This document shows, one piece after another, positions 11,814 through 34,000 of a stretch of DNA of 64,000 nucleotides. The stretch covers positions 384,001-448,000 of the forward strand of contig CAVTHO010000003.1 of NCBI GenBank assembly GCA_963734545.1, written 5' to 3'. Source of the DNA: an uncultured Spirochaetota bacterium (GTDB lineage: Bacteria > Spirochaetota > Spirochaetia > SZUA-6 > Fen-1364). Position numbers and translations under genes: made by a program. The notes beneath the pieces are model-generated. The model was not told where the DNA came from and made no database searches. It saw nothing but the letters and a program-made list of their open reading frames with translations. Every line of letters begins with the position of its first letter. The first letter of the stretch is position 1.

Positions 11814-11842
11814 GGGGGTACCCTTTCGGCGAATACGCCGGT
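11812..11842 (-). repeat. Double-hairpin repeat copy immediately after a stop codon
   Basis: Reverse complement cggcg-tatt-cgccg-a-aaggg-tacc-ccctt; same layout as the 6404 and 17682 copies with compensatory changes. Confidence 0.75.
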
Positions 11843-11890
11843 TCTGGGCGCCGCGGTAGTCGGCCGCGGCCCGGAATGCTATTTTTCATC

Positions 11891-14620
11891 ATGGTCATAC
11901 ACATGTTCGGCGGCCGCGCGGGTGGAGCCCGCCGTGCTGCAGTGCGGCTCGCCCTGCTGGCAGCTCTTGCCGGCGGAGCTCTCCTCCTCTCCGGCTGCGC
12001 AACCTTGCGGCCGGACCCGGGCGCCTCGGCCGGCACCCGGGTTCTGCACGCCACGCTCGAAAATGGACTGCGCGTCATCATCGTGAAGACGTCCCTCGCG
12101 CCGGTGGTCGCGCAGCAGCTCACCTTCTTTGCAGGGGCCAATCAGTCCCCGCCGGGGTTCCCCGGTATGGCTCACGCGGAGGAACATATGATGTTCCGCG
12201 GCTCCCCGGAAATATCGGGAGACCAGTTTTCCGCGATCACGGCGCAGCTGGGGGGGGACCAGAATGCGTTCACCCTTTCCACGACCACCACGTACTATCA
12301 CACGGTACCGGCGGACGACCTGGATCTGACGCTGCGCATGGATGCAATCCGGCTTGCCGGTATCGACAACGATCAGGCCGCCTGGGAAAAGGAGCGCGGG
12401 GCCATCGAGCAGGAGGTGGCACGGGACAACTCCAGTCCTTCCTATGTCCTGCAATCAAGGGCGCGGGAGCGCATCTTCGCAGGCACTCCCTATTCGGACA
12501 CCGGTCTCGGCACGAAGTCGTCTTTCGACCGGACGACTGCCGACATGCTCAGGAGCTTCCACGAGAGCTGGTATGCGCCCAACAATGCGCTCCTGGTTCT
12601 CGTCGGAGACGTGGACCCGGAGGCGGTGCTTGCGAAGGTGAAACAGCTCTACGGGCCCATTCCCGGAAGGCCCGTTCCTCCCCGGGAGGACATCGCGCTC
12701 CGTCCGGTGGCGTCGGACACTTTCAGCTCCACCACCGACCAGCCCTACGGCTTTGTCGCCTACGTCTTCCGCGCGCCGGGCTACCGGGCCCCCGACTATC
12801 CGGCCGCGCAGATTCTTTCCCGCGTGATGGACTCTCCCCGCGGCGCCATCACCGGGCTGGCATACGAGGGGAAGGCCCTCAACGCGGGGTTCACCATGCA
12901 GACTTTTCCCGACACCGGCTACGCCACCGCGTGGGCCGCATTTCCACAGGGAGGGGATGAAAAGGCGCTGGCGGAGGAGCTGAAGAGCGCCGTCAAGCAG
13001 GCGCTGGCCGGCATCCCCGGGGATCTCATCGAAGCCGAGCGCCGGCGCGTGGTGCTGGAAAGCGCGCAGCGGGGCAATTCGATTTCCGGGCTGGCCGACT
13101 CCTGGACCGATGCCGTTGCCGTGAAGGGGCTGGATTCCCCCGACAGGGAAGGGGAGCTGCTCCAGAAAGTGGATGCGGACGCGGTGAAGGCCGCTGCCGC
13201 GCGCCTGCTGGACTTCGATCATGCCATCACCCTCGTGCTCACCCCCGCATCCGGCACCACGGCACCCAGGGGCGGCGGGGCGTTCGGATCGCCTGAATCC
13301 TTCGCGTCCACCCCCGAGAAACCGGTGGCGCTTCCCGCCTGGGCTGCCGCGGCGCTGGCAAAGCTTCCTCATCCGAAGCCCCTGTTCGCACCGACCATCT
13401 ACGACCTGTCAAACGGACTGCGGCTCATCGTGCAGCCTCTCTCTTCCACCAGCGCGGTGAGCCTTTACGGAAGCGTCCATACCAACGAAAATCTCCAGGC
13501 GCCTCAGGGGCAGGAAGGCGTCGAGGACATGCTGAACACCCTCTTCGCCTGGGGCCCGAAAGGAATGAGCCGCGAGTCCTTCGAAGCGGCGTGGGACTCC
13601 ATCGGGGCCGACTACTCGGCGGGCACGTCTTTCTCCCTGAGCGTGCTGCCTGAATACTTCGACAGGGGCGTCGGGCTGCTGAGCGAGGACCTGCTCCAAC
13701 CGGCCCTGCCGACAGATGCCTTCGCAAGCCAGCAGCCTATCCAGGGCAGGCAGGCTGCCGGCAATGTGCAGAGCCCGGTCTTCCAGTTCCGGATCGCCGT
13801 TCAGAAAGGTCTCGTGCCCGCGGGCGACCCCTCCCTGAGGAAGCCGACGCCCGAGTCCATCGCATCCCTCACCGTGGACGCGGTGCGCGCATATCACCAG
13901 GCGGTGATGAGGCCCGACATGACCACGATAGTCGTGATGGGCAGGATAGAGCCGCAGGCGGCGCGCGCGGTCATCGAGAAGTACTTCGGCGCATGGAAGG
14001 CCTCCGGCCCGAAACCCGTCCTGGACTACAAGCCCGTTCCTGCCTCCGTGCCTTCCGAGGTGTTCATTGCCGACGCAGTGCGGGAGCAGAACGAGGTCGT
14101 TCTGACGGAGACGCTGCCGCTGACATACGAGGATCCCGAGCGGCATCCGCTGCGGCTGGGAAGCGAGTTCCTCGGGGGGGACAGCTTTGCCAGCCCCCTC
14201 TACCGCGAGCTCCGGGTCAAGCGGGGCCTTGTCTACAGCGTCGGCAGCTCCGCCGGGTTCGGCCGCACGCGCTCCCAGTTCTCGTTGAGCTTCGGCGCCT
14301 CCCCGGACAAGGTCAAGGAGGCCCGGCTGATCGCCTTGCAGCTCGTGAAGGCCATGGCGGATACGCCGCTGTCCGAGCAGGACCTGCATCTCGCCAAGGG
14401 ACAGTCCCTGCGCCAGATCGAGCTCTCCAACCAGACCGCCTCGGATATCGCCCAGAGCTGGATCGGCTACAATGAGGAGGGGCTCTCGCTCAACCGGTTG
14501 TTCGAGGTCGCGCGCGCCTACGAAAGCCTGACCGCGGAGCAGATCCAGGCCGCTTTCAGGAAGTATGTCGACCCCGACAGGTTGTCCACCTTTGTCCTCG
14601 GCCAGCCCTATGGCCGGTAG
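11891..14620 (+). CDS. M16 family zinc peptidase (pitrilysin-like), lipoprotein
   Basis: Lipobox LLSGC; inverted zincin motif HAEEH; two M16 halves; LRVKRGLVYS. Confidence 0.92.
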   Translation: MVIHMFGGRAGGARRAAVRLALLAALAGGALLLSGCATLRPDPGASAGTRVLHATLENGLRVIIVKTSLAPVVAQQLTFFAGANQSPPGFPGMAHAEEHMMFRGSPEISGDQFSAITAQLGGDQNAFTLSTTTTYYHTVPADDLDLTLRMDAIRLAGIDNDQAAWEKERGAIEQEVARDNSSPSYVLQSRARERIFAGTPYSDTGLGTKSSFDRTTADMLRSFHESWYAPNNALLVLVGDVDPEAVLAKVKQLYGPIPGRPVPPREDIALRPVASDTFSSTTDQPYGFVAYVFRAPGYRAPDYPAAQILSRVMDSPRGAITGLAYEGKALNAGFTMQTFPDTGYATAWAAFPQGGDEKALAEELKSAVKQALAGIPGDLIEAERRRVVLESAQRGNSISGLADSWTDAVAVKGLDSPDREGELLQKVDADAVKAAAARLLDFDHAITLVLTPASGTTAPRGGGAFGSPESFASTPEKPVALPAWAAAALAKLPHPKPLFAPTIYDLSNGLRLIVQPLSSTSAVSLYGSVHTNENLQAPQGQEGVEDMLNTLFAWGPKGMSRESFEAAWDSIGADYSAGTSFSLSVLPEYFDRGVGLLSEDLLQPALPTDAFASQQPIQGRQAAGNVQSPVFQFRIAVQKGLVPAGDPSLRKPTPESIASLTVDAVRAYHQAVMRPDMTTIVVMGRIEPQAARAVIEKYFGAWKASGPKPVLDYKPVPASVPSEVFIADAVREQNEVVLTETLPLTYEDPERHPLRLGSEFLGGDSFASPLYRELRVKRGLVYSVGSSAGFGRTRSQFSLSFGASPDKVKEARLIALQLVKAMADTPLSEQDLHLAKGQSLRQIELSNQTASDIAQSWIGYNEEGLSLNRLFEVARAYESLTAEQIQAAFRKYVDPDRLSTFVLGQPYGR

Positions 14621-17770: not shown

Positions 17771-18655
17771 ATGAAAAGGCGACCGACATCAAAAGACTGG
17801 CTCCCCCTCGCGCGCGCGGACGGGCCGGCCGTCGAGGCGCCCACCGGCGAAGCGTTTCGCACCGAGTGGATCGATTTCGACAGGGGCATCCGGGTCGGCA
17901 ACCTCGAGCCTCACGAGCGCATCACGCGCATTCTCAAGTTCCGCCTGGAAGAAGAGTACGGCACCGGATTCGTGACCGACCGGTGGGGGCGGGGCGTCTA
18001 TTGGCAATGGATCTGCTGGGTGCCCCGGGCGGATCGTGATGCCAAGCCCCTTTCGAGCAGCGTGAACTTCGGCTGCGCAAAGCTCTTCATATCGCAGGAC
18101 CGCCCCGCACGGGTGTTCCAGTGCGGGCTCCAGGTGGAGCGCGGCGCCGAATCCGCGTCGCGGTACTCCGCGGATTCCGCGTCGCGGTACTCCGCGGATT
18201 CCGGCGAAGGAGAGGTGGTGCTCCAGGACGACTGGGACTGGCACCGGCTCATGCGGCAGTGCGCGGCGAAAACGCCGCTGGACGACGAGCTTCACCGGCT
18301 GGTACGGAAGGAAGGATTCGTGGCCCGTATCTGGGGATGGCCGGGAGCGCCTTCATTCACCGCTGCAAATTACCGGTCGGCGGCCCAGATCCGGCAGGCC
18401 GCGCGGAAGGCCCCCCGGGACCGGTGGGCGGGTTTCCAGCTCTACTATCCAATGCCCGAGCCGGAAGTGCGCGCCACCGGGGGCTACGATTTCGTGCAGG
18501 CGATCATGGGTGCCTTTTCCGAGGTGATTCCCGCCATGAACCTCTGCATGCAGGTCACATTGGCTCCGGCACGCCCGCTCAGCGCGCCCGGTCCCGGATC
18601 GGCGACTCCTTCAGGAACAGCGCGAGGCAGACAGCGGCCAGCGTCAGGGCGATGA
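17771..18655 (+). CDS. Conserved hypothetical protein (Trp-rich) with in-frame repeat insertion
   Basis: ORF with DRWGRGVYWQWICW, FGCAK and DWDWH; codon usage typical of the window. Confidence 0.65.
   Translation: MKRRPTSKDWLPLARADGPAVEAPTGEAFRTEWIDFDRGIRVGNLEPHERITRILKFRLEEEYGTGFVTDRWGRGVYWQWICWVPRADRDAKPLSSSVNFGCAKLFISQDRPARVFQCGLQVERGAESASRYSADSASRYSADSGEGEVVLQDDWDWHRLMRQCAAKTPLDDELHRLVRKEGFVARIWGWPGAPSFTAANYRSAAQIRQAARKAPRDRWAGFQLYYPMPEPEVRATGGYDFVQAIMGAFSEVIPAMNLCMQVTLAPARPLSAPGPGSATPSGTARGRQRPASGR
18149..18202 (+). repeat. Two tandem 24-bp hairpin repeat units, in frame (SASRYSAD x2)
   Basis: tccgcgtcgcggtactccgcggat repeated exactly at 18152 and 18176. Confidence 0.92.
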
Positions 18656-19799
18656 GGGCCACGAGGGAGCTGGTCATCGAGCCGCTGGGGGACTTCAGCG
18701 CATCCATCGCGAATATGAATACGATTCCGGAAAACTGACCCATCACGATGAGCATGCTGTTCGAAGTGCCCTCGGGAGCGGGAAGGGTGATCTCGGCCCC
18801 GTACTGGAAGCCGATTGGCCCTGCGCTCAGCAGGAACATCCCGAACACCACGGCGGAGACCGCCAGCAGCCACCACGTCGTGGCGAATGTGAGGCCCGCC
18901 AGGCCGGGGAGCAGCCCCGCGAGGGCGAGAATGATGAATGGCTTCCGCCTTCGCGTGGCATCGGAGATGAGCGGAATGACGACGGCGCCGACGACTCCGC
19001 CGATCAGCATCAGGCCGCCCGCCAATCCGGCCTGGGCCGTGGTAAATCCGCGCGGCCCGACGATCTCCTCGATCCACGTGGTGATTCCATTGAACAGGCC
19101 GAGCCCGATGAAGAATATGATGAGCAGGAGGATGAAATCCTTCTGCCGGATCATGCTTTTCAGCCCGTCGAACATGAGCGTTCTCTCGTCATGACCGGCA
19201 GGCCCCGGGGGCGTCGGCGGATGCTCGCGGGCCGCGACGACGAAAAGCACCGCGGCGAGGCAGGACACGGCCCCGCCGATCAGGAGCATGCCCTTCATTC
19301 CATAGCTGCCCATCAGGAGAGGGGTCAGTATCAACGACGCGAGGATTCCGAGGTAGATGGAGAGGGTGCCCAGCCCCGCGGCCGTTGCCCGTTCATCATT
19401 CAGGAACCAGCGGGCGCCCAGCTTCGTGATGGCGCCGAGTATCAGCGGCTGGCCGATGGCGATGCCGATCTGGGAGACGAAGACGAGCGCGAAATTGTCC
19501 GCGAATATGCCGCGGGTCAGGGCGAACACCGCGGTAAGAATCGCGCCGAGGGACACGGACTTCCGGAACCCCCAGGTGTCGATGAGCCAGGCCGACGGGA
19601 GGAACAGGAGGATGTAGACCACCATGAAAACCATGGACAGGAGGCCGATCGCGATATCGGAGGCGGCGTAGAACTTCATCGCGTCGCTCGTGATGGGGGC
19701 GAATGTGATCCAGAGGCCCTGGTTCAGCGCGGTGATGAACATGAACACCGCCAGGATCACCCACCGGTATCCGTACGTCCTGATTGTTCCTTCCTCCAT
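18579..19799 (-). CDS. MFS transporter
   Basis: About 12 hydrophobic segments; YRWVIL, WLIDTWGFRK, WF..ERATA; SD GAGGAG upstream. Confidence 0.9.
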   Translation of the reverse strand: MEEGTIRTYGYRWVILAVFMFITALNQGLWITFAPITSDAMKFYAASDIAIGLLSMVFMVVYILLFLPSAWLIDTWGFRKSVSLGAILTAVFALTRGIFADNFALVFVSQIGIAIGQPLILGAITKLGARWFLNDERATAAGLGTLSIYLGILASLILTPLLMGSYGMKGMLLIGGAVSCLAAVLFVVAAREHPPTPPGPAGHDERTLMFDGLKSMIRQKDFILLLIIFFIGLGLFNGITTWIEEIVGPRGFTTAQAGLAGGLMLIGGVVGAVVIPLISDATRRRKPFIILALAGLLPGLAGLTFATTWWLLAVSAVVFGMFLLSAGPIGFQYGAEITLPAPEGTSNSMLIVMGQFSGIVFIFAMDALKSPSGSMTSSLVALIALTLAAVCLALFLKESPIRDRAR

Positions 19800-19823
19800 C
19801 TGGCCCTCCTCTGTCAAAAACCC

Positions 19824-19852
19824 ACTATATAAGCGCGTGTTCCCGGTATCAA
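19824..19852 (-). promoter_or_regulatory. sigma70 promoter TTGATA-17-TATAGT
   Basis: Near-consensus hexamers with a 17-nt spacer upstream of the MFS gene. Confidence 0.65.
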
Positions 19853-19862
19853 GGAAACAACT

Positions 19863-21042
19863 TCACGTGCGCGTCGCGACGGAGCGTTTCACCATGGCGA
19901 CGATCGCAAGGGAGAGCACGACAAGCACAAGGGTGAGGCCGAGATAGAACCAGAACCCTCCGCGCAGGCCGATGCTTTCCGCGACGACTGCCATGAGGAA
20001 CGGGAAGGTGAATGAGCCCAGACCGCCTCCGGTCGCGACGGTCCCCACCGCAAATCCGCTCTTGAAGTAGCGGCCGACGATGGTCATGACGAGCGGGTAG
20101 AGCGCGGACAGGCCGAGTCCCGTCAGGAAGACTCCCACTGCCACCGCGGCGGTGGAGCTCACCACGAGAACAAACCCCAGCGCGACCGCGGACAGCAGGG
20201 AGAGACCCAGCACCAGGTATTCCTGGCGGGTGCCCCGGTAGAGCACCGAGACTCCGAGCCGGCCGGCGAAAGATACCCAGCCAGAAAAGCGAAACGGAGA
20301 AGGCGCCCGTGGAGGTGCTGGTTGCGAGCACCTTCACGAAATACTCTGAAACCCACGTGGAGACACCGAGCTCCGCTCCCACGTAGAGGAGCAGGAAGAG
20401 CGTCAGGAGGAGCAGGACGGGGCTGCGCAGGAGCCGGAGCCCGTGTCTCTGTCCATGTTCGTCCTCCTGGGCGAGCCGCGGGAACCTGGCCGTGCCGAAG
20501 AGAAGCGCCATGAGGGCAATCGGCCCGGCCGCGGCCAGGAAAACGACCGTCCCCCGAATGCCCAGGCTCATGAGAATGCCCACGGCGGCCGGTCCCACGA
20601 TTGCTCCCACGGAAAAGGCCGCATGCATGAGGTTCATGAGCCTGCTCTGGCCCTTCCGCTCCATGTGGATGACCTCGAGATTGGTCACCACCTCGATCGT
20701 GCCCTGTCCGAGCCCGATCATCAGGTTCAGCGCCAGATTGAGCCACGGTGAACGCCACCGCATGAAGAAGAGCATGCAGACCGCAATGAGCAGCAGGCCG
20801 GTGACCAGCACTGTCCGTGGGGAGAACCTCTGCACGAGAAAGCCGCAGAGGAATGTCGAAAGGAAGTAGCCGATGGCGCTGGCAGCCAGCACGACCCCGG
20901 TGAGGGTGTACGACCAGTGGAACGTCCGGATGATCTGGGGGAGCGCCGCACCGATTATGGTGAAGAGGATCCCGAAAATCACGAAGCCGGCAAGGAAGAG
21001 GACATACAGGCGCCGTGTCTCGCGGTTGAGTGACTGCATCAT
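19863..21042 (-). CDS. MFS transporter (FucP/TsgA-like); frameshift near 20270
   Basis: Hydrophobic helices, MNLMHAAFSVGAIVGP and LYVGAE motifs; C-terminal half in ORF 19863..20246. Confidence 0.85.
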
Positions 21043-21108: not shown

Positions 21109-21206
21109 GAGCGCCTGCCGACATCGTCGTATTGTGACTTCGCCGTTTTTGTGCTATATCCGGAACTGCATCTCCACTGACACACCGAAAAGCCCGGAGC
21201 CTGATT

Positions 21207-22103
21207 GTGACGTCCCGATCCATTGCGATCATCTTGTGCGCGACAACTCTCGCCCTGCTCCTCGGAGCATGTCCCGCGCACGCGCAAGCTGCTGCGTCAG
21301 GCGTCACTATTGATGCCACGAGCGCGGCCACAGGCACGGATGCCGTTACGTCCGCGTCGGCAGCGGGGACTCGATCCGGCAGCGGCCGTGCCGCGCTCGA
21401 CCTTGCGAGCATTCTGATGGGCCCCGGGTTCATTCTCGCGTGGGTCCTTTTCGCGCTCGGATGCGCATGGCGCGTCATCCAGTTCAGCCGCCTGACCCGG
21501 CTCGCGCAGCACACGCCGGCCGCCGGCGTGCAGCTCACCGCTCCCCGTCCGGAGATTGCTGATCGGGAGTTCCTGCTCAGGGGCGAGTCCTGGCTGGGCC
21601 GACTTTTCTCACGTTATCGAAGATGGGAACGGGGAACCGTTTTCGGCGGCCACCCCGTGATGGCAAGGGTGAGCCTCGTGTTTCACTTGCTTCTTTTCCT
21701 GGTTCCGCTGCTTCTTCCCGCGCACAACAACCTTCTCTCCCGGGCCCTTGGCGTGGGCCTGCCTTCCCTTCCGGCGCCACTACTGGACATGCTGACGCTC
21801 GTCTTTCTGGTCATCGGCGGGTTTTTCCTCGCGCGCAGGATCCTTGTTCCGCGCGTCAGGATCCTCAGTACCCTGGGGGACTACGCCATCCTTCTGCTCG
21901 TTGTGGCGCCGTTCATCACCGCTTACGCGGCCCATCACCGATGGCTCGACTATCACGCGCTTCTCATGGCGCACACGTTCGTCGGGGAAGCGCTGATTGC
22001 CGCCATTCCGTTCACCAAGCTGGGTCATATGCCCTTCCTGATATTCTCGCGCTTCTTCACGGCCTCCGAGTACTCGTTGAAGACGGCGGGCCGCAGGTGG
22101 TAG
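21207..22103 (+). CDS. DsrM/TmcC/NarI-family di-heme cytochrome b with an N-terminal signal peptide and low-complexity extension
   Basis: Five TM helices; four candidate heme His in VFHLL..LPAHN and MAHTF..PFTKLGHM; N-terminal signal peptide ending PAHA/Q. Confidence 0.85.
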   Translation: MTSRSIAIILCATTLALLLGACPAHAQAAASGVTIDATSAATGTDAVTSASAAGTRSGSGRAALDLASILMGPGFILAWVLFALGCAWRVIQFSRLTRLAQHTPAAGVQLTAPRPEIADREFLLRGESWLGRLFSRYRRWERGTVFGGHPVMARVSLVFHLLLFLVPLLLPAHNNLLSRALGVGLPSLPAPLLDMLTLVFLVIGGFFLARRILVPRVRILSTLGDYAILLLVVAPFITAYAAHHRWLDYHALLMAHTFVGEALIAAIPFTKLGHMPFLIFSRFFTASEYSLKTAGRRW

Positions 22104-22105
22104 CA

Positions 22106-22483
22106 ATGGACGCACGGACCCGGGAGAGGATCGCCAGGATCGTCGCGAAAAAGGAGGGATTGATCAGGCTCTCCCTGCAGGCATGCGCGCACTGCGCCTT
22201 CTGCGCGGAGAGCTGCTTCATGTACCGGCAGAGCGGCGGCGATCCCACCTGCACTCCCTCCTACAAGGCAATCAATTCCATCGGGAAGATCTGGCGGAAG
22301 AAAGGGAAGCTGTCAGAGGCGGAATATGCGCGGATCAGGGAACTTGCGTGGGACAAATGCGTGCTGTGCATGCGCTGCTACTGCCCGGTCGGCATCAACA
22401 TCCCGTCCCTGATCGCCGCGGCGCGCGGCGCGTGCAGGGAACAAGGCGTGCTGCGCACCTATGACGCAAAGAGGAACGCCTGA
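22106..22483 (+). CDS. 4Fe-4S dicluster protein (N-terminal domain of DsrK/TmcB/HdrC type), no CCG domain
   Basis: CAHCAFCAESC and CVLCMRCYCP motifs; 125 aa. Confidence 0.88.
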   Translation: MDARTRERIARIVAKKEGLIRLSLQACAHCAFCAESCFMYRQSGGDPTCTPSYKAINSIGKIWRKKGKLSEAEYARIRELAWDKCVLCMRCYCPVGINIPSLIAAARGACREQGVLRTYDAKRNA

Positions 22484-22502
22484 GGGCGGAAGCGAGGAAG
22501 AC

Positions 22503-23228
22503 ATGGTCAAGGCCACACGGAAGCCATTGGAAGAGATATTCGGCATGGTGAAGGGATTCGAGCGCGTGCTGGTTGTCGGCTGCGGCGGATGCACGTCGGT
22601 GTGCCTCGCCGGCGGACAGCGGGAGGTCCTTGCCCTTGCGGATGAGCTTGCCGAATGCGCGCGTCACGAACGGGTGCCCCAGCAGTACGCGTGCTTCGTG
22701 ACGGAGCGCCAGTGCAACCGCGAGTTTCTGGATGACATCGAGGAGCGGGTGGAAAACTGCGACTGCCTGCTGTCCCTGGCCTGCGGCGCGGGCGCCGGCC
22801 TGATGGCGGACGTGTATGCGGCCGTTCCGGTTTTCCCCGCCCTCAATACGATGTTCCTCGGCGCGGACCTGGATGTGGGCCTGTACGAAGAGAGGTGCCG
22901 CACCTGCGGCCAATGCGTGCTGGGTGACACCGGGGGAATCTGCCCGGTGACGCGCTGCTCCAAAGGCTCGCTGAACGGCCCCTGCGGCGGGACGCAGCAG
23001 GACGGCTCCTGCGAGCTGGGGGACGGCATCCACTGCGCGTGGAACGACATCTATGATCGACTGAAAGGACAGGGAAGGCTGGAAAGCATGCAGGTCATCC
23101 GGCCGCCCATGGACTGGATGGAGAAGGGCCCCCGAACCCTTGTCCAGCGGGGCTTCGAAGCCAGGTACGCCAAAAAGCCCGCCGGAATGCCGCCAGGAGC
23201 GGCCGCGGAAAAGGCGCGGCTGCCGTGA
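22503..23228 (+). CDS. metV: Methylenetetrahydrofolate reductase small Fe-S/Zn subunit
   Basis: GCGGC, ERQC, ACGAG, CRTCGQCVL...CPVTRCSKGSLNGPCGG...C...CAW. Confidence 0.9.
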   Translation: MVKATRKPLEEIFGMVKGFERVLVVGCGGCTSVCLAGGQREVLALADELAECARHERVPQQYACFVTERQCNREFLDDIEERVENCDCLLSLACGAGAGLMADVYAAVPVFPALNTMFLGADLDVGLYEERCRTCGQCVLGDTGGICPVTRCSKGSLNGPCGGTQQDGSCELGDGIHCAWNDIYDRLKGQGRLESMQVIRPPMDWMEKGPRTLVQRGFEARYAKKPAGMPPGAAAEKARLP

Positions 23229-24151
23229 GGTCGGGCAGCAATCTGGAAAAGGTCCTTGCCGCGGGTCACTTCGCCGTCACGGCGGAGCTGGGCCCTCCCG
23301 CGGGAGCCGACACCGAGCCGGTGCGGCTGAAAGCGGAGCTCCTGCGCGGCGCCGTGGATGCCGTGAACGTGACGGACAACCAGACGGCGGTCGTCCGCAT
23401 GTCCAGCATTGCCGTCTCATCGCTTCTCGTGCAGATGGGCGTCGAGCCGGTGATGCAGATGGTCTGCCGCGACAGGAATCGCATCGCCATGCAGAGCGAC
23501 ATATTCGGGGCCTCCGCGCTCGGCATCCGCAACCTCACCTGCCTGTCGGGAGACCACCAGAGCTTCGGGAACCAGGCCGGCGCGAAAAAGGTCTATGATA
23601 TCGACTCGGTGCAGCTCGTCGCCATGGTGAAGCGTCTTCGGGACGAGAAGAAGGTCCTGGACAGCGACGAGGAGATCGCCGGCAGCGTGCCGATGTTCAT
23701 CGGCGTGGCGGCCAACCCGTTCGCCCAGCCGTACGAGTTTCGCGCGCTCCGGCTGGCCAAGAAGGTGGCGGCGGGCGCGGACTACGTGCAGACCCAGTGC
23801 GTGTTCGACGTGCCCCGTTTCGCGGAGTGGATGAAGGCCGTGCGCGACCTGGGGCTGCACACCCGGTGCGGAATCCTTGCCGGGGTGACGCCGCTGAAGT
23901 CCGCGGGCATGACCCGCTACATGGCGGAAAGCGTGCCGGGTATCAGCATTCCGGAGCAGATCGTGAAACGGATGAGCGACGCGCCCCGCGGCAAGGCCGC
24001 GGAAACAGGGCTGCAGATCTGCCGGGAAATCATCGAGGAATTGCGCTCGATCGAGGGAGTCGCCGGCATCCATATCATGGCGGTCGAATGGGAGCAGAAG
24101 GTCCGCGAGATCGTGGCAGGGGCCGGTCTTCTCCCGCGGCCACTGGTATAG
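23225..24151 (+). CDS. metF: Methylenetetrahydrofolate reductase
   Basis: VTAELGPP, NVTDN, CRDRNRIAMQS, LSGDH, KKVAAGADYVQTQ, GIHIM. Confidence 0.95.
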   Translation: MRSGSNLEKVLAAGHFAVTAELGPPAGADTEPVRLKAELLRGAVDAVNVTDNQTAVVRMSSIAVSSLLVQMGVEPVMQMVCRDRNRIAMQSDIFGASALGIRNLTCLSGDHQSFGNQAGAKKVYDIDSVQLVAMVKRLRDEKKVLDSDEEIAGSVPMFIGVAANPFAQPYEFRALRLAKKVAAGADYVQTQCVFDVPRFAEWMKAVRDLGLHTRCGILAGVTPLKSAGMTRYMAESVPGISIPEQIVKRMSDAPRGKAAETGLQICREIIEELRSIEGVAGIHIMAVEWEQKVREIVAGAGLLPRPLV

Positions 24152-27986: not shown

Positions 27987-29555
27987 TCAGCGGCCCCGCA
28001 GCAGGTCCGCCGCGCGCTCCGCGATCATGATGGTCGTTGCGTTCGTGTTGCAGCGGACGATTTCCGGCATGAGGGAGGCGTCCACCACCGAGAGCCCTTC
28101 TGTTCCGATCACCGCGCAATCCGGGTCCACTACCGCGTTCGGGTCGCTCGCCGCGCCCATCCTGCACGTCCCGACCGGGTGAAAGTACTGCGCGCACTGG
28201 GCAAGAATCGCGGCGTCGAGATCGTCGTCCCGCGGGAAGGCGCTGACGGCCCGCCCCTTGCCGCCCCGCGGGGCAAAGTTTGCCTCTCCCTCTATCGCTT
28301 CCTTCAGCGCGCCTTCCTGCACGAGCTCGAACAGGTGCCGCAGTCCCTGGCGGACCCGCACCAGGTCCCTTTTGTCCGACAGCATTCCCACATTCACGAA
28401 GGGGCTGCGCTTCGGATCCGCGGATTCGAGCGCCACGCTCCCCGAGGAGTAGACGGAGCCGAGGCCCATCACGAGGCCGCCGGTTTCCCGGGCCGCCTCC
28501 GTCGTGCCGATGAAGCTCTGCGTGTGCACGTTCAGGTCGTTCTTCAGGCTGTGGGGAGTGTCCGAGGTCCAGAGAAGGAGGATCGAGGAGAAGAAGTCGC
28601 GCGGGGCCGGAGCGGGCGCGCGGTGACTCTCCTTCAGCGTGAATGTCACGGTGAGGAGCGGATGGTCGAAGAGACGGCCGAGGCCGGGACGATCGCTCAC
28701 GAGGGTTGCGCCGAGGCGGTGCACCTGCTCCGCCTGCCCGATGCCTGACCTCAGGAGGATGGCAGGCGTGAAGACCGCGCCGGCGCAGAGGATGACCCTG
28801 CGGGCCTTGTATGTCTCCTGCCGTCCCGCGACCAGCGCGCGTACTCCCGTGGCCTTCCTGCCCTCGAACAGGACCGCGTCCACCAGGGAATCTCCCTGAA
28901 TCGCGAGGTTCTCCCTTTGCCGGGCAGGCTCCAGGTAGGCGTCGTTCGTGGAGACCCTCTTGCCGTCACGCACGTTGTAGGGCACGGTCGTGATGCCCGA
29001 AGCCCCGGGCGCGTTGAAGTCCAGGTCAGCGGACTCCCGGTGTCCCCGCTGCATTGCCGCTTCATGGAACGCGAGATCGAGCGGCTTCCACGCTCCGCGC
29101 GATGGGCGCCAGACCGGTATGGGGCCGCTGGTGCCGTGGCAGTCGCGGTCCGCGGGCGCAAGGTCGCTTTCAGCCCGCACGAAATACTTCAGGGCTTCCT
29201 TTCCCGACCATCCCCGGCAGCCGAGGGCTTCCCACCGATCGAAATCGTCCAGCGGCGGCCGCACGTAAAACAGCGCGTTCACGGTGGAGCCCCCGCCCAG
29301 GCCCTTTCCCACCCAGTACTGCTCAGGCTGCTTTGCCTCGGTCAGCCGGCCCTTGAGGTCCTGCCAGAAAAACTCCGGACGCTGGAATGCATGAAAGAAA
29401 TTGAGACTGCGGATCTCTTCCGGCGCGTCGGCGCTTCTCCAGTTCTTTCCCGCCTCGAGGAGCAGGACCGACGACCTCCCGTCTTCGCTCAACCGGTTGG
29501 CAACAACGCTGCCGGCAGACCCCCCGCCGACAACGACAAAGTCCCAGGTGCGCAT
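27987..29555 (-). CDS. GMC family FAD oxidoreductase (choline/alcohol dehydrogenase-like)
   Basis: VVGGGSAG, GKGLGGGSTVN, LLRSGIG, HPVGTCRMG, VDASLMP, NTNATT. Confidence 0.92.
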   Translation of the reverse strand: MRTWDFVVVGGGSAGSVVANRLSEDGRSSVLLLEAGKNWRSADAPEEIRSLNFFHAFQRPEFFWQDLKGRLTEAKQPEQYWVGKGLGGGSTVNALFYVRPPLDDFDRWEALGCRGWSGKEALKYFVRAESDLAPADRDCHGTSGPIPVWRPSRGAWKPLDLAFHEAAMQRGHRESADLDFNAPGASGITTVPYNVRDGKRVSTNDAYLEPARQRENLAIQGDSLVDAVLFEGRKATGVRALVAGRQETYKARRVILCAGAVFTPAILLRSGIGQAEQVHRLGATLVSDRPGLGRLFDHPLLTVTFTLKESHRAPAPAPRDFFSSILLLWTSDTPHSLKNDLNVHTQSFIGTTEAARETGGLVMGLGSVYSSGSVALESADPKRSPFVNVGMLSDKRDLVRVRQGLRHLFELVQEGALKEAIEGEANFAPRGGKGRAVSAFPRDDDLDAAILAQCAQYFHPVGTCRMGAASDPNAVVDPDCAVIGTEGLSVVDASLMPEIVRCNTNATTIMIAERAADLLRGR

Positions 29556-30991
29556 CAGAACTTCATGCAGATGGTGGACTGCTCGCTGTAGAAGTCGAGG
29601 CTGAACAGCCCGCCCTGCCTGCCGATGCCGCTCTCCTTCATGCCGCCGTAGGGGGTCCGCGGGTCTCGCAGGAACCACGTGTTGACCCAGGTGAGCCCGG
29701 CCTCGATCTGCTCCGCCACCCGGAACGCCCTCTTCGCGTCGCTGGTCCAGAGCGAGGCGCTCAGGCCGTAGCGCGTGTCATTGGCCTTGCGGATCACTTC
29801 CTCTTCCGTGTCGAACGGCTCCACGGTGACGACGGGACCGAACACTTCCTCGCACATGATCCGCGAGGCAGGCTTCGCGCCCGTGATGATCGTGGGCTCC
29901 ACGAAGTAGCCGCGGGCGATCCCTTTCGGGCGTCCTCCGCCGGCCAGGATGGCCGCCCCGTCCTTCCGGGCGAGCTCGATATAGCTCATGACCCGGTCGT
30001 AGTGCTCCCTGCTGATGAGCGCCCCCACGTTCGTCTTCGGCTGCAGCGGATCTCCCACGACCTGTTCCCTGGTTTTTGCGAGGAACTTTTCCATGAACTG
30101 ATCGTAGATCGGGCGCTGCACGTACGCGCGGGAGCCGCTGAGGCAGATCTCCCCCTGGTTGAGGAAGCTTGCCCGCACCGTGGCCTCCACCACCTCGTCC
30201 ACGGCGCAGTCCGCGAAAACGATGTTCGGGTTCTTGCCGCCGAGCTCGAAGGAGACTTTTTTCAGGTTGCCCGAAGCGGCCTGCATGATGCTCGTGCCGG
30301 TCGTGGTCTCTCCGGTGAAGGAGATCGCGCCGATTCCGGGGTGGCGTGCGATTGCCTCTCCCGCCGAGTCCCGGCCGAACCCGTGCACGACATTGACCAC
30401 GCCGTCAGGAACACCGGCCTGGGCGCAGATCTCGGCCAGGACCGTGGCGGTCATGGGGGTCCACTCCGCGGGCTTGAGGACGGCCGCGTTTCCCATTGCG
30501 AGGCAGGGCGCCAGCTTCGCGCTGAGCAGGAGCAGGGGGAGGTTCCACGGGTTGATGAGCCCGACCACCCCGATCGGCCTCCGCAGGACGTAGTTCAGTG
30601 CGCCGGCCTCCATCGGGTAGGCCTCTGTACCCATCGTGGAAATGAGGTTCGCGAAGAACTGGTAGCTGCCGGCCGCCCGTGGGATGTCGACGTTCGTGGC
30701 GAGCCACAATGGCTTGCCCGTGTCCAGGGCTTCGAGCATTGCGAGCTCGTCCCTGCGCTGAAGGATCAGGTCGCTGATCTTCCGCAGTATGGCCGCGCGC
30801 TCACTGAGCTTTGTGGTCTTCCATCCTCCGGCAAAGGCCTTGTGCGCCGCCTCGACCGCCATCTCGACCTCCGCGGCACCCCCTTCGGCCACGGTTCCGA
30901 GCACTTCCTCGGTGGCCGGGTTTATATTCTCGAAGCTCTTGTTGTTGCGCGATGCAATCCGGTTCCCGCCGATGAAGTGGAGACAATCCAT
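29555..30991 (-). CDS. Aldehyde dehydrogenase (2-hydroxymuconate semialdehyde dehydrogenase-like)
   Basis: PWNLP, FTGETTTG, ELGGKN, catalytic Cys in NQGEICL, EEVFGP, WFLRDPRTPYGG. Confidence 0.92.
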   Translation of the reverse strand: MDCLHFIGGNRIASRNNKSFENINPATEEVLGTVAEGGAAEVEMAVEAAHKAFAGGWKTTKLSERAAILRKISDLILQRRDELAMLEALDTGKPLWLATNVDIPRAAGSYQFFANLISTMGTEAYPMEAGALNYVLRRPIGVVGLINPWNLPLLLLSAKLAPCLAMGNAAVLKPAEWTPMTATVLAEICAQAGVPDGVVNVVHGFGRDSAGEAIARHPGIGAISFTGETTTGTSIMQAASGNLKKVSFELGGKNPNIVFADCAVDEVVEATVRASFLNQGEICLSGSRAYVQRPIYDQFMEKFLAKTREQVVGDPLQPKTNVGALISREHYDRVMSYIELARKDGAAILAGGGRPKGIARGYFVEPTIITGAKPASRIMCEEVFGPVVTVEPFDTEEEVIRKANDTRYGLSASLWTSDAKRAFRVAEQIEAGLTWVNTWFLRDPRTPYGGMKESGIGRQGGLFSLDFYSEQSTICMKF

Positions 30992-31091
30992 CCCTTTGAC
31001 TGATTTCGGTTCCATGGAGGAAAGATCGACATCGACGGAATGGTCGTCAATCGATTCCGAACGGGACGGAGACGAGGGGGCCTCGAATGGA

Positions 31092-34000
31092 TCAGGTCCC
31101 CTGCGGGGGGCGCTCATCCGGCTCCTGGCCCGGCCGCTTTCCCAGCAATGAGAACGAGGGCTGGAGGCTGCGCCAGCTCCTTTCGAACTCCTCGTCGATC
31201 AGCGCCGCTTCCCGGCCCGAATGGGCTCCCCGACGGCAGACGTCCCGCAGCCTCTGGTACTCCCGCGCGAATCCGTCGAAAAGACCCTGCAGCGCCGCGT
31301 CGTCGATCGTCACCTGGACGGGAGAAGTCGTCGAAGCCGCTCCCGGGTGCTGGCTCTTTTTCAGGGGATCCTTTTCCGGTGGCAGCCCGAGGGCGATTTC
31401 AGTGGGCTCCCATGCCCGCAGAGGGTCGCGCAGGCCCTTGATGCCGACCATGCCGAGATCGTTGGCATGGATCCAGTCGGCCACCCGCGCGAACAGCTCC
31501 TGGGAGATGCAGATCGACCCTCCCCGTGCCGTGGTCTGGAGACGGGCCGCGATGTTCACCGTGTTGCCCAGCGCGTCCCCTCCCTTCTCGACCACCTCTC
31601 CCCAATGGATCCCGATCCGCACGATCACTCTCATCTTCTCCGGCCGGAAGCGGTTGAACCTCCGCAGCGCCTTCTGCACGCGGATCGCGGAGAGGACGGC
31701 GGACATGGGCTCGGAGAACAGGAAAATATGGCCGTCCCCCATCCTCTTGACCAGCGCTCCCTCGTGGGCGCCGACGATCGGCAGGAGAATGCCTTCGTAC
31801 TCCTGCAAGAGGGAGGTGATCTCCAGGGGGGAGAGCTCCTCTGCCTTGCTCGAATAGTCCTGGATATCGGAGAAAAGCACGGCGCACACCCGCACGTGCT
31901 CCCGCTCGAACTTGTACGTGTCCTTCTCCGTGGAGAAGCGCACTTCCGGTTCGTCCACCGGCTCGACGTCCGCCGCTTCGATGTCTCCGGCCGGCGTGCG
32001 CAGGATCCTCACCATGCTGACAAGGAGCTGCTGCGCGCGCGGATCGCTCGTGACCGGGAGCACCGAGCGCAGGGTCTCCTGGAGCTGCGGGTCCCTCTCT
32101 CTCATCAGCGACCAGATGGCGGCGATGACGGAAGGCCGCAGGTCGTGGCGCAGGTCCCTCACCAGCGTGATCCGGTCGGTGGAGGCGAGGCGGGAGAGCA
32201 CCTCCGAGAGGACGCGCGGAGCGTAGTCGTCCCCGAGCGCAAACAGGACGGCGGGCACACGGGCGATTGCCGCCGAGGACCCGCTGCGAAGCACGCGGTA
32301 GAGAAACTCGGTCATGACGCTGCCGGTGACAGGGGCCGACCGCTCTGCAATGCGATGGATCGCGGAAATTGCGAGAAGCTTCTTGCTTTCCTCCAGCTCC
32401 TCGTACACCTCGATCAGGGCGAGCGCAATGGCCATGTTCCCTTTCGATCCGAGCAGCTCGGCGAGCTTGGAGACGACCTCCGAATCGGTCTCCATGACCA
32501 GGAGCTGGAGGATGGCGCGGAGCAGTCCGTCACCCAGCACCTCGTCCGCGGAGAGAGCATCGAGCAGGGCGAGCCGGATGTAGCGGTCGTTCTCGTGCAG
32601 GAGGTTGATGAGCGTGGGCTCCATGGCCCCGAGCTCCTTCTCCTTCACGAGCTCGATTGCGGCAATGGCGAGGATCCGGTTGGACACGGGAGGCGTCATG
32701 CTCTGCCCGGCACGCCTCGAGCGCCTGCTGCGGATCGACGGTGTGGAGGGCGAAAAGCGCGTTCTCGGCGAGGCGATAGAGCTTCGCCTCCCGCGCCCAC
32801 TGGAACACGGAATAAAGCAGCTCCCGGGCACCCGGCCGGGGCGCGAGCCTCACCAGCGCGAGACACCGTTTGAGTCTCAGGACGACACGGTGCTTGTCGG
32901 TCCTGGCGAGGGAGAGGTGGCGGATGAAAAGCGCGATCCCCGACCGGGTCGGGTTCTCCAGCAGCTCGCGCAGGACGCGGTACCCGTCGAAGTGGCTTCC
33001 CTCCAGCTTCACGGCGGACTCCTTGAGCGTACGGGCGCAGCGCTGACGCTCCGCGGAGCTCCCCCCCGTCTTGATGGACTGAAGAAAGGCCTTCTTCATC
33101 TCCTCGTCGTAGTAGAACTCCATGTACTCCCGGGCGCTGGCGATCTGCTGGCCGGTTTCGTGGGTGGTGTCGATATCCACCTCCCGGATCTCACGCAGGT
33201 CCTTGAAGAGCTGGGCGATGGTGTCCGGGAGTGCGGCGAGACGCGGCATCGGGGGAGGGGATGCGGCGGAGAGGAGCGCCGCCTCCATTGCGTCCACGGC
33301 CAGCAGCGCCTCCTCCTCCAGCGAGGCATCCGCCTCCACGTTCGCCGCGAGCAGAGCGCCCAGCTCGTCGAAGTGGGGGACCTGCGAGGCGCGGGACCCG
33401 ATGTGCCGGTAGCATTCCCGCCGAAGCGCGGAGCTCGCGTCTGCAAGCGATTCGAAGAAGATGCTGCGCGCCTCGGCTGTGGCGAGCGGCGCGGCAAGCG
33501 CGACCAGCGCAGCGCGCAGGGGCGCCGACAGACGCGTGTGGGACGGCTGGTAGGCGGCAAGCGTGGCCGCGGCAAGCGTGTCGTCCCGGGCGGCGGACTG
33601 GAACAGGTATTGGACGGCCTCGTGGTCCTGCGCGGCAAGAGCGAGCGCAGCCTCGGCGCCCCTGCGCGCCCGCAGCTGCAGGAGCACCTCGAGAGAGGCG
33701 GAGCGCACCGCCGGCTGCACCGTCTGCGAGCGGGACAGGGTTTCGGCGAGCTGATGCACTTCCGGGGCCTCCGGGGACAGCTCCGCGAGCGTCCGCAGGA
33801 GCTCCAGCTGGACGAGCTCCTCCCGCCGGGTGGCGAAAAGCTTCAGCAGGAGCGGGAGGGTCTCGGGAGCGGCTATTCTCCCCGAAACACGGACGGCTGC
33901 GCAAACGATTTCAGGGTCGGGATGGCTGAAAAGCCTCGAAATCCAGCCGAAGCTCCGGGGATCCCGAATGACGCCGAGCGCCTGCAGGGCCGAGATGACG

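Follow-up and report, generated by a model that had tools for sequence, protein, structure and literature searches.

The window, i.e., the whole stretch of 64,000 nucleotides that was analysed, carries four tightly packed genes on its forward strand between positions 21207 and 24151, encoding a cytochrome b, a mini Fe-S protein, MetV, and MetF (Table 1). The tight coupling described in the initial annotation, with junctions of 2 nt, 19 nt, and an overlap, matches the coordinates of the open reading frames. The two MFS transporter genes that diverge from the operon are also found as a pair upstream of it in L003, L006, L007, L012, and L021, and may be associated with it. The second MFS gene shows an apparent frameshift near position 20250.

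Table 1. Positions within the window of the operon genes, the parts of the cytochrome b tail, and surrounding features.
Feature	Position	Strand	Remarks
Two MFS transporter genes	18579..21042	-	Divergent from the operon; MFS_1 2e-35 and 4e-26
GGAG ribosome-binding site	21196..21199	+	7 nt 5' of the cytochrome b GTG; direct sequence reading
TmcC/HmcE-like dihaem cytochrome b, 298 aa	21207..22103	+	GTG start; predicted signal peptide, outward tail, and five-helix core
Signal peptide, residues 1-26	21207..21284	+	Hydrophobic segment at residues 6-24; predicted cleavage after AHA (CPAHA followed by Q)
Extracytoplasmic Ala/Ser/Thr-rich tail, residues 27-66	21285..21404	+	Predicted; 2 K/R vs 3 D/E
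Motif 1, DATSAAT, residues 36-42	21312..21332	+	Within IDATSAAT (residues 35-42, nt 21309-21332); fits D-x-x-[ST]-[GSA]-A-[ST]; Thr42 predicted FMN acceptor
Motif 2, DAVTSAS, residues 45-51	21339..21359	+	Within TDAVTSAS (residues 44-51, nt 21336-21359); Ser51 predicted FMN acceptor
Mini Fe-S protein, 125 aa	22106..22483	+	ATG start; 2-nt gap from the cytochrome b gene
MetV, 241 aa	22503..23228	+	19-nt gap from the mini Fe-S gene
MetF, methylenetetrahydrofolate reductase catalytic subunit, 308 aa	23225..24151	+	GTG start; 4-nt overlap with the MetV stop
Haem synthesis cluster	56114-63115

An alternative start of the cytochrome b at the downstream ATG at 21417 was considered and rejected. The 70 codons upstream of it, signal peptide included, are kept as protein in 28 homologues of 52-85% identity, and the GTG at 21207 is therefore regarded as the real start, which places the start upstream of the tail motifs as originally proposed. 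By sequence inspection, no GGAG-like site precedes the ATG. The extra signal peptide that had been noted before the flexible segment was recovered as well, as residues 1-26 are signal-peptide-like and conserved in the same 28 homologues. Its lipobox-like LLGAC could suggest a lipoprotein, a reading that was rejected because the Cys is not conserved (homologues have LLGAI or LLGAY).

The cytochrome b matched the TmcC model NF045723 at 2.2e-42 and 145 bits, short of the equivalog cut-off of 240 and over model positions 69-210 of 218 only, while the Desulfobacter control L036 reached 293 bits on the same model. The match to HmcE (NF045716, 1.7e-35) was likewise under the equivalog cut-off, that to Pfam NarI (PF02665) missed the 22.9-bit cut-off with 17.4 bits (E 0.0036), and a profile built from 29 cytochrome sequences reached the E. 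coli NarI chains at E 0.012 only. The core comprises five hydrophobic segments, with K/R-rich loops at residues 94-144, 209-218, and 281-298. His160, His173, His244, His256, and His274 are invariant among the 29 sequences; His160 and His173 are located on and after helix 2 and His256 and His274 on helix 5, a spacing which we take to be comparable with the two His pairs of NarI on helices 2 and 5. These conserved residues suggest that the protein binds haem. The protein is thus predicted to have the NarI-type traits of five helices, an outside N-terminus, and a His pair on each of helices 2 and 5. The outward N-terminus, claimed at the outset, is backed by the many homologues that carry a tetrahaem cytochrome c3 domain with haem-c sites (CxxCH x4) at the exact position of the tail, and the positive-inside rule agrees as a prediction.

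The mini Fe-S protein matched Fer4_8 (2.3e-8) and covers only positions 51-153 of 457 in HmcF and 21-137 of 430 in TmcB, the latter with a score of 70 bits where the cut-off is 735. Judged by these matches, it is the two-[4Fe-4S] ferredoxin-like N-terminal dicluster domain of TmcB/HmcF/DsrK. That this domain stands alone, without a CCG domain, had been stated in the initial annotation and agrees with the length of 125 aa, the partial HmcF and TmcB matches, and a Pfam search that gave no PF02754 match in this protein. Cys27, 30, 33, 37, 85, 88, 91, 93, and 110 are invariant in 20 sequences, and the reading frame stops 0-29 codons past the aligned part in 80/80 metagenome loci. MetV matched PF12225/DUF5981 at 3.4e-33, with invariant Cys residues and a common start, MVKATRKPLEE, in 21 aligned sequences. 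MetF matched PF02219 at 2.2e-38 (132.7 bits, cut-off 24) and the MTHFR half of NF006396 at 5.7e-67. Neither RnfC2 nor HdrCBA-MvhD was found in the operon or its flanks.

Tmc ancestry and gene linkage

On profile similarity, the cytochrome/Fe-S module goes back to the Tmc complex of sulfate-reducing bacteria, a descent missing from the initial annotation. Both systems pair a TmcC/HmcE-type membrane cytochrome b with a cytoplasmic TmcB/HmcF-type Fe-S subunit, and relatives of the operon add a TmcA-type tetrahaem c3 outside. Unlike in Tmc, the TmcB of the operon is cut to its N-terminal dicluster domain with the CCG domains gone, no TmcD-like gene is present among the four, and the TmcC and TmcB scores fall below the equivalog cut-offs. 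The cytoplasmic partner is MetVF, whereas that of Tmc is the DsrC/sulfite pathway, and TmcA is absent in the window, where the motif-bearing tail takes its place. The combination of a NarI-type cytochrome b and a cytoplasmic Fe-S subunit is also shared with DsrMK, HdrDE, and HmeCD, but the operon is without catalytic CCG domains and its catalytic end would be MetV and MetF. A second pair in the genome, at G000:C7:244733-246824, consists of a NarI-type cytochrome b and a full CCG subunit.

The TmcA-like tetrahaem c3 (4 CxxCH), which serves as outer module in most relatives and was also not part of the earlier reading, is fused to the N-terminus of the cytochrome b, encoded in the operon, or both. 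In L023, TmcA was detected at 159.5 bits (cut-off 114) adjoining MetV, a TmcC-like gene, and a mini Fe-S gene, and the Desulfobacter locus L036 has the gene order hdrA-mvhD-metV-metF-nifU-tmcDCB. PF02085 (c3) had no match in the window's own genome, which is 89% complete, and none anywhere in 8 of the 18 genomes holding the operon cytochrome.

The proposed linkage of the cytochrome b to metVF is conserved across relatives. All 18 spirochaete loci long enough to show the set have cytb-FeS-MetV-MetF on one strand, with L008 outside this count as its locus runs to the contig end. When the Fe-S gene was taken as an independent start in metagenome contigs, cytb was found upstream in 66/66 loci where 300 nt or more were available, MetV downstream in 37/46 loci with 700 nt or more (7 others have it upstream instead), and MetF downstream in 25/26 loci with 2000 nt or more. 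A second gene order, metV-cytb-FeS-metF, appears in divergent low-GC contigs with a 4xCxxCH gene upstream. That the cytochrome b and Fe-S pair is an independent redox module merely adjoining metVF is therefore highly improbable: the genes stay together in two orders, in one of which the pair is inserted between metV and metF, the junctions are short or overlapping, and in none of the 80 loci does the Fe-S protein have its own catalytic domain. Gene order alone suggests that the Fe-S protein contacts MetV.

Motifs on the cytochrome tail

Both motifs are located between the signal peptide and the first core helix, and their extracytoplasmic location is predicted from the preceding signal peptide, the c3 fusions, and the positive-inside rule. 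The initial annotation had proposed them as ApbE-like sites, and their conservation in homologues is borne out by the pattern D-x-x-[ST]-[GSA]-A-[ST] in 55 of 59 full-length tails, with 97 copies vs 1.2 expected and zero copies in the membrane core. When the 44-residue tail encoded in the window was shuffled 100,000 times, 0.031% of the shuffles had at least two motifs. Across the whole genome, at least two copies were present in only 4 of 22,239 six-frame ORFs, namely the operon cytochrome b, a two-domain FMN_bind protein, a second NarI-type cytochrome b, and an NDH-2. FMN_bind is a known flavinylation substrate type (PMC8238504, PMC11334425). The second NarI-type cytochrome b keeps the motif in 108/120 homologues, and the NDH-2 with the tail-type motif lies ~0.8 kb from apbE; neither occurrence was part of the initial annotation.

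As pointed out initially, the canonical Gly of D-x-x-[S/T]-G-A-[S/T] is replaced in both window motifs, by Ala in DATSAAT and by Ser in DAVTSAS. The 80%-identical orthologue P0002/L003 has Gly at both sites (DATSGAT, DAVSGAS), and canonical Gly forms also occur in P0030 and P0021. Close homologues read DAVTSAS, DAVSSAS, or DAVSGAS at motif 2. Gly at position 5 accounts for 4/109 instances in the operon cytochrome family and 3/162 in the second cytochrome family, and position 2, which the pattern leaves unconstrained, is Ala in 104/109 instances of the former.

ApbE-flavinylated extracytosolic proteins include FMN_bind, DUF2271, DUF3570, and NqrB/RnfD, and the cytochromes associated with flavinylated proteins include PepSY-like, MsrQ-like, and DUF4405 types (PMC8238504, PMC11334425). 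Similar to these substrates and to the 7-residue Flavin-tag (PMC12052999), the tail carries an extracytoplasmic Asp...Ser/Thr motif, here D-A-x-[ST]-x-A-[ST], is linked to a transmembrane haem protein, and has multiple copies as in multi-flavinylated proteins. In contrast to them, the motifs lie in a disordered tail and not in a folded domain, Gly is mostly swapped for Ser or Ala in the operon cytochrome family, and the motif-bearing protein is a cytochrome b of the NarI family, a group unnamed in the covered sections of PMC8238504 and PMC11334425; "NarI" and "cytochrome b" have 0 occurrences each in the main text of PMC8238504. The cytochrome b gave no Pfam match to the flavinylated domains FMN_bind, DUF2271, DUF3570, or NqrB/RnfD, and the canonical-motif proteins of the same genome match FMN_bind and DUF2271. 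In the literature covered, experimentally verified ApbE sites are [S/T]GA[S/T] throughout, no test of a G-to-S substitution was found, and the engineered Flavin-tag is the only precedent for bare-peptide flavinylation. According to the covered part of PMC12052999, flavinylation needs no more than seven residues, G-to-A leaves ~50% flavinylation in one model protein, and the effect of D-to-A is minor. The expected apbE was present in two copies (303 and 291 bits in the profile search) that are not adjacent to the operon, a presence that is not discriminating because 87/92 genomes of the order have apbE.

The same complex might also work with an unflavinylated tail, whose motif would serve for docking, act as a linker, or take up a different modification, while the cytochrome b exchanges electrons with the quinone pool as a quinol:methylene-THF / methyl-THF:quinone oxidoreductase. 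NarI, HdrE, and DsrM trade electrons with the membrane quinone pool, and a quinone is plausible here because the genome carries genes for UbiA-type prenyltransferase and polyprenyl synthase. The near-constant substitution of Gly at position 5 and the low-complexity, Ala/Ser/Thr-rich sequence fit this reading, and S. ovata membranes reduce AQDS with methyl-THF (PMC9430772). We nevertheless consider it unlikely, since a linker would not hold D, A2, [ST]4, A6, and [ST]7 in register among homologues of 42-85% identity and in two cytochrome families, and since canonical Gly variants occur at orthologous sites. A tail or c3 domain is always there outside the basal forms, which argues for a periplasmic partner rather than quinone alone.

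The cytochrome tail is viewed as probably flavinylated. Loci without any c3 carry 2-3 motifs (8/8) and loci with c3 carry 0-1. The c3-less, multi-motif loci grouped together (support 85/93) and may form one clade, so that the inverse relation between c3 and motifs may reflect a single event. We infer that Thr42 and Ser51 would each bear a tethered FMN that takes over the role of c3. Each in-silico refutation check that the initial annotation had named beforehand favoured its overall reading.

Electron route and direction of flow

With chances that we regard as evenly balanced, the four genes encode one membrane-bound, Tmc-derived MetVF enzyme that is wired to the outside, has a flavinylated tail, and works in methyl-THF oxidation. 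It would be a MetVF-type methylene-THF reductase / methyl-THF dehydrogenase connected to the outer face of the cytoplasmic membrane. On the inner side, electrons would move between MetF (flavin, folate site), MetV (Fe-S), and the two [4Fe-4S] of the mini Fe-S protein, and from there via the two haems b of the TmcC-like cytochrome to and from an extracytoplasmic carrier. This carrier would be the TmcA-like tetrahaem c3 in most relatives; in the window's lineage c3 would have been lost, the outward tail with its two ApbE-type motifs being there instead, and FMN at Thr42 and Ser51 would do its job, passing electrons from methyl-THF out to acceptors in the periplasm or beyond the cell. The analysis itself shows the gene content, its conservation, the topology markers, the conserved motifs, and that apbE and haem synthesis are there to supply cofactors; that the proteins form a complex, that the tail receives FMN, and which way electrons flow are inferred.

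Acetyl-CoA synthase (ACS) had 0 matches in the own genome and was found in 1/25 family genomes, that genome being without the operon cytochrome. The own genome holds an MttB-family gene, a methyl-THF:corrinoid methyltransferase above cut-off, and a corrinoid protein, with the methyltransferase genes scattered. A corrinoid gene (81-92% identical) lies directly 5' of the cytochrome in L016, L018, L019, and L072, and a Pterin_bind gene upstream of the operon in L013. The oxidation of methyl-THF has a potential of about -200 mV. Because ACS is missing but the corrinoid protein and both methyltransferases are present, methyl-THF oxidation with export of electrons to periplasmic or extracellular acceptors is the likely physiological direction, an argument resting on absences in an 89% complete genome with visible frameshifts.

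Tmc carries periplasmic electrons inward, and the same hardware, flavinylated or not, might do so too, with donors in the periplasm, e.g., H2 or formate, reducing cytoplasmic methylene-THF in a charge-separating, energy-conserving redox loop. Inward flow would suit the Tmc ancestry, the TmcA-like c3 of relatives, the H2-dependent methylene-THF reduction by S. ovata membranes (PMC9430772), and a long-standing hypothesis for cytochrome-containing acetogens (PMC8578096). It is, however, rather improbable for this host, where the ACS to use methyl-THF is absent, NiFe-hydrogenase matches are weak N-terminal fragments only, and the corrinoid/pterin methyltransferase genes beside the relatives' operons point to methyl input.

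The electron partner and membrane coupling of MetVF-type reductases have been argued over for decades. In recent papers, the connection is still drawn as a hypothetical linker or as a membrane carrier of unknown identity (PMC8578096, PMC8760232, PMC9430772). Acetogen types II-IV are described as MetVF alone, with RnfC2, or with HdrCBA-MvhD, and in the covered sections no integral membrane subunit is encoded in the cluster of any of the four described MTHFR types (PMC8760232, PMC9430772); for the S. ovata enzyme, the authors report no transmembrane helices (PMC9430772). The operon shares with acetogen MetVF the MetF and MetV core subunits and the idea of a membrane-chain tie, reversible for methyl oxidation (PMC8760232, PMC9430772), but itself encodes the cytochrome b anchor and Fe-S connector, in a host without ACS. 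No published description of the system was found in the literature.

A wider proposal is more tentative, and we rate its chances as somewhat short of even: short ApbE-type motifs on disordered tails or loops would be natural "flavin-tags", an unrecognized substrate class on NarI-type cytochromes b and on NDH-2 near apbE; tethered flavins would have replaced tetrahaem c3 in one spirochaete lineage; and the operon would represent a fifth, membrane-integral MetVF type coupling methyl-THF oxidation (in other hosts, methylene-THF reduction) to transmembrane electron transfer. In this operon the putative linker is itself encoded, as a cytochrome b together with a pared-down Fe-S connector that stay with MetV and MetF in two orders, so that four or five defined proteins can be targeted in expression, structural, and activity studies. 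Should FMN sit on the tail motifs, flavinylation would reach bare peptide tails on very common respiratory membrane anchors, and flavins and multihaem cytochromes c would be interchangeable outer modules. The operon also suggests a route by which non-acetogenic anaerobes may shed methyl-group electrons.

Architecture of the operon and quality of the assembly

The operon is best filed as a Tmc-derived transmembrane module combined with a MetVF reductase, and it may include an ApbE substrate of a new kind. Coordinates and family matches confirmed the order described in the initial annotation, with a membrane cytochrome b followed by a mini Fe-S protein, MetV, and MetF. MetV and MetF matched PF12225 (3.4e-33) and PF02219 (2.2e-38), respectively. 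The cytochrome b matched the NCBIfam models TmcC (2.2e-42, 145 bits against a cut-off of 240) and HmcE (1.7e-35), both confined to its last 150 residues, while the match to Pfam NarI was sub-threshold with 17.4 against 22.9 bits. The mini Fe-S protein consists of a Fer4_8 dicluster domain, which aligns with residues 51-153 of 457 in HmcF and 21-137 of 430 in TmcB, and family searches found no CCG domain in it. Among PDB sequences, the cytochrome retrieved NarI at no better than E 0.012, the Fe-S protein nothing, and MetV nothing meaningful. The 5' region of the operon gave no relevant Rfam match, and scanning for promoters and terminators returned no promoter candidate; the minus strand held a single terminator-like site, a yield not above that of shuffled sequence. 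No RNA run was listed in the sequencing-run search, and in DNA runs the share of sampled words reached 0.33 at most.

Coordinates of the operon and of further features in the window, in the contigs of its own genome (C5, C7, C8), and in other loci (L)
Feature	Location	Strand	Remarks
Membrane cytochrome b	21207-22103	+	first gene of the operon; GTG start, 298 aa; two or more motif copies
Mini Fe-S protein	22106-22483	+	ATG start, 125 aa; 2-nt gap after cytochrome b
MetV	22503-23228	+	ATG start, 241 aa; 19-nt gap after Fe-S gene
MetF	23225-24151	+	GTG start, 308 aa; 4-nt overlap with MetV
Motifs in cytochrome tail	21309-21332, 21336-21359		
Two-domain FMN_bind protein			secreted; canonical DAISGAS twice
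Second cytochrome b	C7:245985-246824	-	NarI-type, 279 aa; Pfam NarI 1.8e-11; two or more motif copies
Second cytochrome b and Fe-S pair	C7:244733-246824 (L037:6734-8825)	-	
apbE/NDH-2 locus	C7:705000-711000 (L038:8011-13001)		genes about 0.8 kb apart
NDH-2 reading frames	L038:8653-10182, 8666-10573		apparent frameshift; two or more motif copies
Chaperonin-ApbE frame	C8 (L039:7140-9929)	-	929 aa; GroEL-type domain 23-524, complete ApbE domain 625-899
Formate-THF ligase	C5:238122-239802		internal TGA
P-type ATPase	2888-5557		split
Aminotransferase and M16 peptidase domains	9485-14620		joined in one 1711-aa ORF
MFS transporter	~20250		apparently frameshifted
GMC oxidoreductase and aldehyde dehydrogenase	27987-31117	-	adjoining genes
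Adenylate/guanylate cyclase domains	31092-32831, 35021-36016, 52830-55583		three proteins within 25 kb
Haem cluster	56114-63115	+	hemC-hemD fusion, Chlor_dismutase family (HemQ/ChdC-like), hemE, proto/coproporphyrinogen oxidase
Pterin_bind and fused MetF-MetV genes	L013:3014-5936		438 and 527 aa; directly upstream of operon
MTHFR cluster beside tmc genes	L036:66-7855		Desulfobacter
Second gene order	L115:1996-5314		

Several genes in the table appear split, joined, or interrupted. The assembly probably carries indel errors, and apparent pseudogenes are therefore not to be trusted. The three cyclase-domain proteins of the window have further counterparts near other loci (L003, L052). Choline dehydrogenase and betaine-aldehyde dehydrogenase were among the best names for the GMC oxidoreductase and its neighbor, and this assignment was rejected as all scores were below the family cut-offs.

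Start, topology, and motifs of the cytochrome tail

The database gene call for the window sequence itself (P0003, 228 aa) begins at the ATG at 21417, as does the gene call P0006 (228 aa), which would place the start downstream of the motifs. This start was ruled out because the 70 codons upstream of it are conserved as protein, with all 298 residues, including signal peptide and tail, aligning in 28 homologues at 52-85% identity. The GTG start was assigned by this conservation together with a GGAG located 7 nt ahead of it, and not by GC3, which at 0.67 against 0.62 and 0.71 was uninformative on frame in the 5' extension. A lipoprotein reading was also rejected, as the Cys of LLGAC varies among homologues.

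Hydropathy resolved a signal-type segment at residues 6-24, a 41-residue low-charge tail, and five core helices. Since the K/R-rich loops are at residues 94-144, 209-218, and the C-terminus, the tail is predicted to face outward. The strongest topological marker is comparative: in many homologues the signal peptide and the first core helix are separated by a cytochrome c3 domain (PF02085/PF14522, four CxxCH), and such a domain matures only outside the cytoplasm. Five histidines are invariant (His160, His173, His244, His256, and His274), and the placement of His160/His173 and His256/His274 on helices 2 and 5 is as expected for two haems b, an arrangement that presumably resembles that of NarI. 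Elsewhere in the window, the composition of the haem cluster points to a putative coproporphyrin-dependent route.

The initial annotation had proposed that ApbE attaches FMN to two motifs in this tail, and both motifs lie at the coordinates it gave. The pattern D-x-x-[ST]-[GSA]-A-[ST] was searched in 99 homologues, of which 30 short or truncated sequences were left out for want of a core anchor at or beyond residue 40 and a further 10 for want of a signal-like start. At least one copy was found in the mature tail of 55 of the 59 remaining homologues, with 97 copies in total against 1.2 expected from residue shuffles, and none was found in the membrane core. For the tail of the window protein, two copies were reached in 0.031% of 100,000 shuffles. 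When position 5 was unconstrained, Ala occupied position 2 in 104 of 109 motif instances; position 5 itself was Ser in 78, Ala in 25, and Gly in 4. The canonical Gly was seen at the orthologous sites of P0002, an orthologue 80% identical to the window protein (DATSGAT and DAVSGAS; locus L003), and in the homologue P0030 (DAQSGAS). According to the review PMC12052999, the ApbE motif is D-x-x-[S/T]-G-A-[S/T] and its seven residues are enough for flavinylation; in one model protein a G-to-A change keeps about 50% flavinylation, and a D-to-A change has a minor effect. Attachment of FMN to the tail is a prediction from sequence, against which the scarcity of Gly weighs most.

In the window's own genome, 22,239 six-frame ORFs no shorter than 80 aa were screened; 74 contained one motif copy and only four contained two or more. 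These four are the operon cytochrome b, a known kind of ApbE substrate (the two-domain FMN_bind protein), a second cytochrome b, and an NDH-2-like protein. Other proteins with the canonical motif in this genome match FMN_bind and DUF2271. The second cytochrome b carries DAVTAAS and DAATSAS in its N-terminal tail, and the gene after it encodes a full DsrK/TmcB-like CCG Fe-S protein. One to two copies occurred in the first 60 residues of 108 of its 120 best homologues, among which one was labelled Bacillota and one had canonical Gly forms. The NDH-2-like protein has a C-terminal membrane domain and an Ala-rich loop with DATTAAS and DVTSAAS. In its homologues, the strict motif occurred in 61 of 120 loops and the relaxed motif in 100 of 120, but the latter is expected in A/S/T-rich loops and is not discriminating.

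Two apbE genes were found in the window's genome. As apbE occurs in 24 of 25 genomes of the family and 87 of 92 of the order, its co-occurrence with the cytochrome is not discriminating. The gene close to NDH-2 is accompanied by genes for a UbiA-type prenyltransferase, a polyprenyl synthase, and an ECF transporter, a locus that resembles the one for flavin-based extracellular electron transfer in Listeria. An ApbE domain also shares one reading frame with a GroEL-type chaperonin on another contig, which may be a true fusion or may reflect the loss of a stop codon between two genes.

Linkage to MetVF and relation to Tmc

Of the 92 genomes of the order, 18 hold the cytochrome, and these belong to a single family. 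Scanning one genome for each species yielded 34 loci, of which 19 were spirochaete-type. The order cytochrome b-Fe-S-MetV-MetF was kept in all 18 of these that were long enough; the remaining locus (L008) stops inside the Fe-S gene. Linkage was tested independently in 80 metagenome loci found from the Fe-S gene. The cytochrome was located upstream in 66 of 66 loci with room of at least 300 nt, and MetF downstream in 25 of 26 with at least 2000 nt. With room of at least 700 nt, MetV was found downstream in 37 of 46 loci and upstream instead in 7 more; of the two left over, L113 gave no detectable MetV and L118 is truncated on its 5' side. L128, the one locus that departs for MetF, is apparently the contig of L023, as both have the same length and identical identities of the cytochrome, MetV, and Fe-S matches. 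In 80 of 80 loci the Fe-S ORF ends 0-29 codons past the aligned domain, and in no case is it a full TmcB. Divergent low-GC metagenome contigs (L115, L116, L121, and L122) showed a second gene order, c3 (four CxxCH)-metV-cytochrome b-Fe-S-metF, in which the membrane module is inserted within metVF and the cytochrome has neither tail nor motif.

In the Desulfobacterales locus L023, metV is followed by a TmcC-like gene, the mini Fe-S gene, and TmcA (159.5 bits against a cut-off of 114). In Desulfobacter (L036), hdrA-mvhD-metV-metF-nifU lies directly beside bona fide tmcD, tmcC, and tmcB, each of which scores above its NCBIfam cut-off. A type-IV-like MTHFR cluster thus neighbours a true Tmc complex here, and this arrangement may be ancestral.

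Cytochrome c3 and motif copies in the window and the loci of the one-genome-per-species scan
c3 arrangement	Loci	Motifs in tail
No c3 at all	window, L003, L004, L005, L016-L019	2-3
Fused c3 and separate c3 gene	L006, L007, L012, L021	1
Fused c3; contig ends ahead of c3-gene position	L008	1
Separate c3 gene, tail present	L010	1
Separate c3 gene, no tail	L011, L013-L015, L023	0

PF02085 had no match in the window's genome (89% complete) and was absent from 8 of the 18 order genomes that hold the cytochrome; where it was present, most of the matches listed fall at the cytochrome locus. In the core tree, the c3-less forms are possibly one clade (support 85/93, not decisive), and the swap between c3 and motif may therefore be a single event.

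Described systems and metabolic context

Four types of MTHFR have been distinguished (MetF, MetVF, MetVF-RnfC2, and MetVF-HdrCBA-MvhD), none with a membrane subunit in its cluster, by Öppinger et al. (PMC8760232), who propose a hypothetical membrane coupling. A hypothetical linker is likewise drawn by Rosenbaum and Müller (PMC8578096). Kremp et al. (PMC9430772) showed a chain from H2 to methylene-THF in S. ovata membranes but found no transmembrane helices in the MTHFR subunits. Described flavinylation substrates are folded domains, with PepSY-like, MsrQ-like, and DUF4405 cytochromes associated (Méheust et al. PMC8238504; Huang et al. PMC11334425), and the text of both that was examined does not mention NarI-type proteins. 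Our literature search found no description of a cytochrome b/Tmc-MetVF operon and none of flavinylation of NarI/DsrM/HdrE-type proteins or of its motifs on NarI-type cytochromes; the supplementary candidate lists of PMC8238504 and PMC11334425 could hold such proteins. The membrane electron conduit to MTHFR proposed in the initial annotation withstood the computational checks on start, motifs, metVF linkage, and apbE. In this proposed conduit, MetV would be in contact with the Fe-S protein, quinone may take part, and the direction of electron flow is tentative.

A role in acetogenesis was rejected, as acetyl-CoA synthase (PF03598) was not found in the window's genome at 89% completeness; it occurred in 1 of 25 family genomes, and that genome lacks the cytochrome. 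For the formation and processing of methyl-THF, the window's genome encodes an MttB-family methyltransferase, a stand-alone methyl-THF:corrinoid methyltransferase (325 bits, above the cut-off of 259), a 212-aa corrinoid protein, and formate-THF ligase, along with a separate 630-aa ORF whose MTHFR domain possibly has a biosynthetic role. In four loci of a sister clade (L016, L018, L019, and L072), a corrinoid gene 81-92% identical to that of the window's genome lies directly upstream of the cytochrome. A Pterin_bind protein and a fused MetF-MetV directly precede the cytochrome b-Fe-S-c3-MetV-MetF operon in L013, and the same upstream arrangement occurs in L011, L014, and L123, so that each of these loci has two sets of MTHFR genes.

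Methyl-THF is oxidised at about -200 mV, and methyl oxidation was calculated to be exergonic with a quinone-level acceptor (PMC9430772). The oxidation of methyl-THF needs an acceptor other than NAD+. As methyl-THF from such systems has no acetyl-CoA outlet here and a non-NAD+ acceptor is needed, outward electron flow with oxidation of methyl-THF is the favoured inference.
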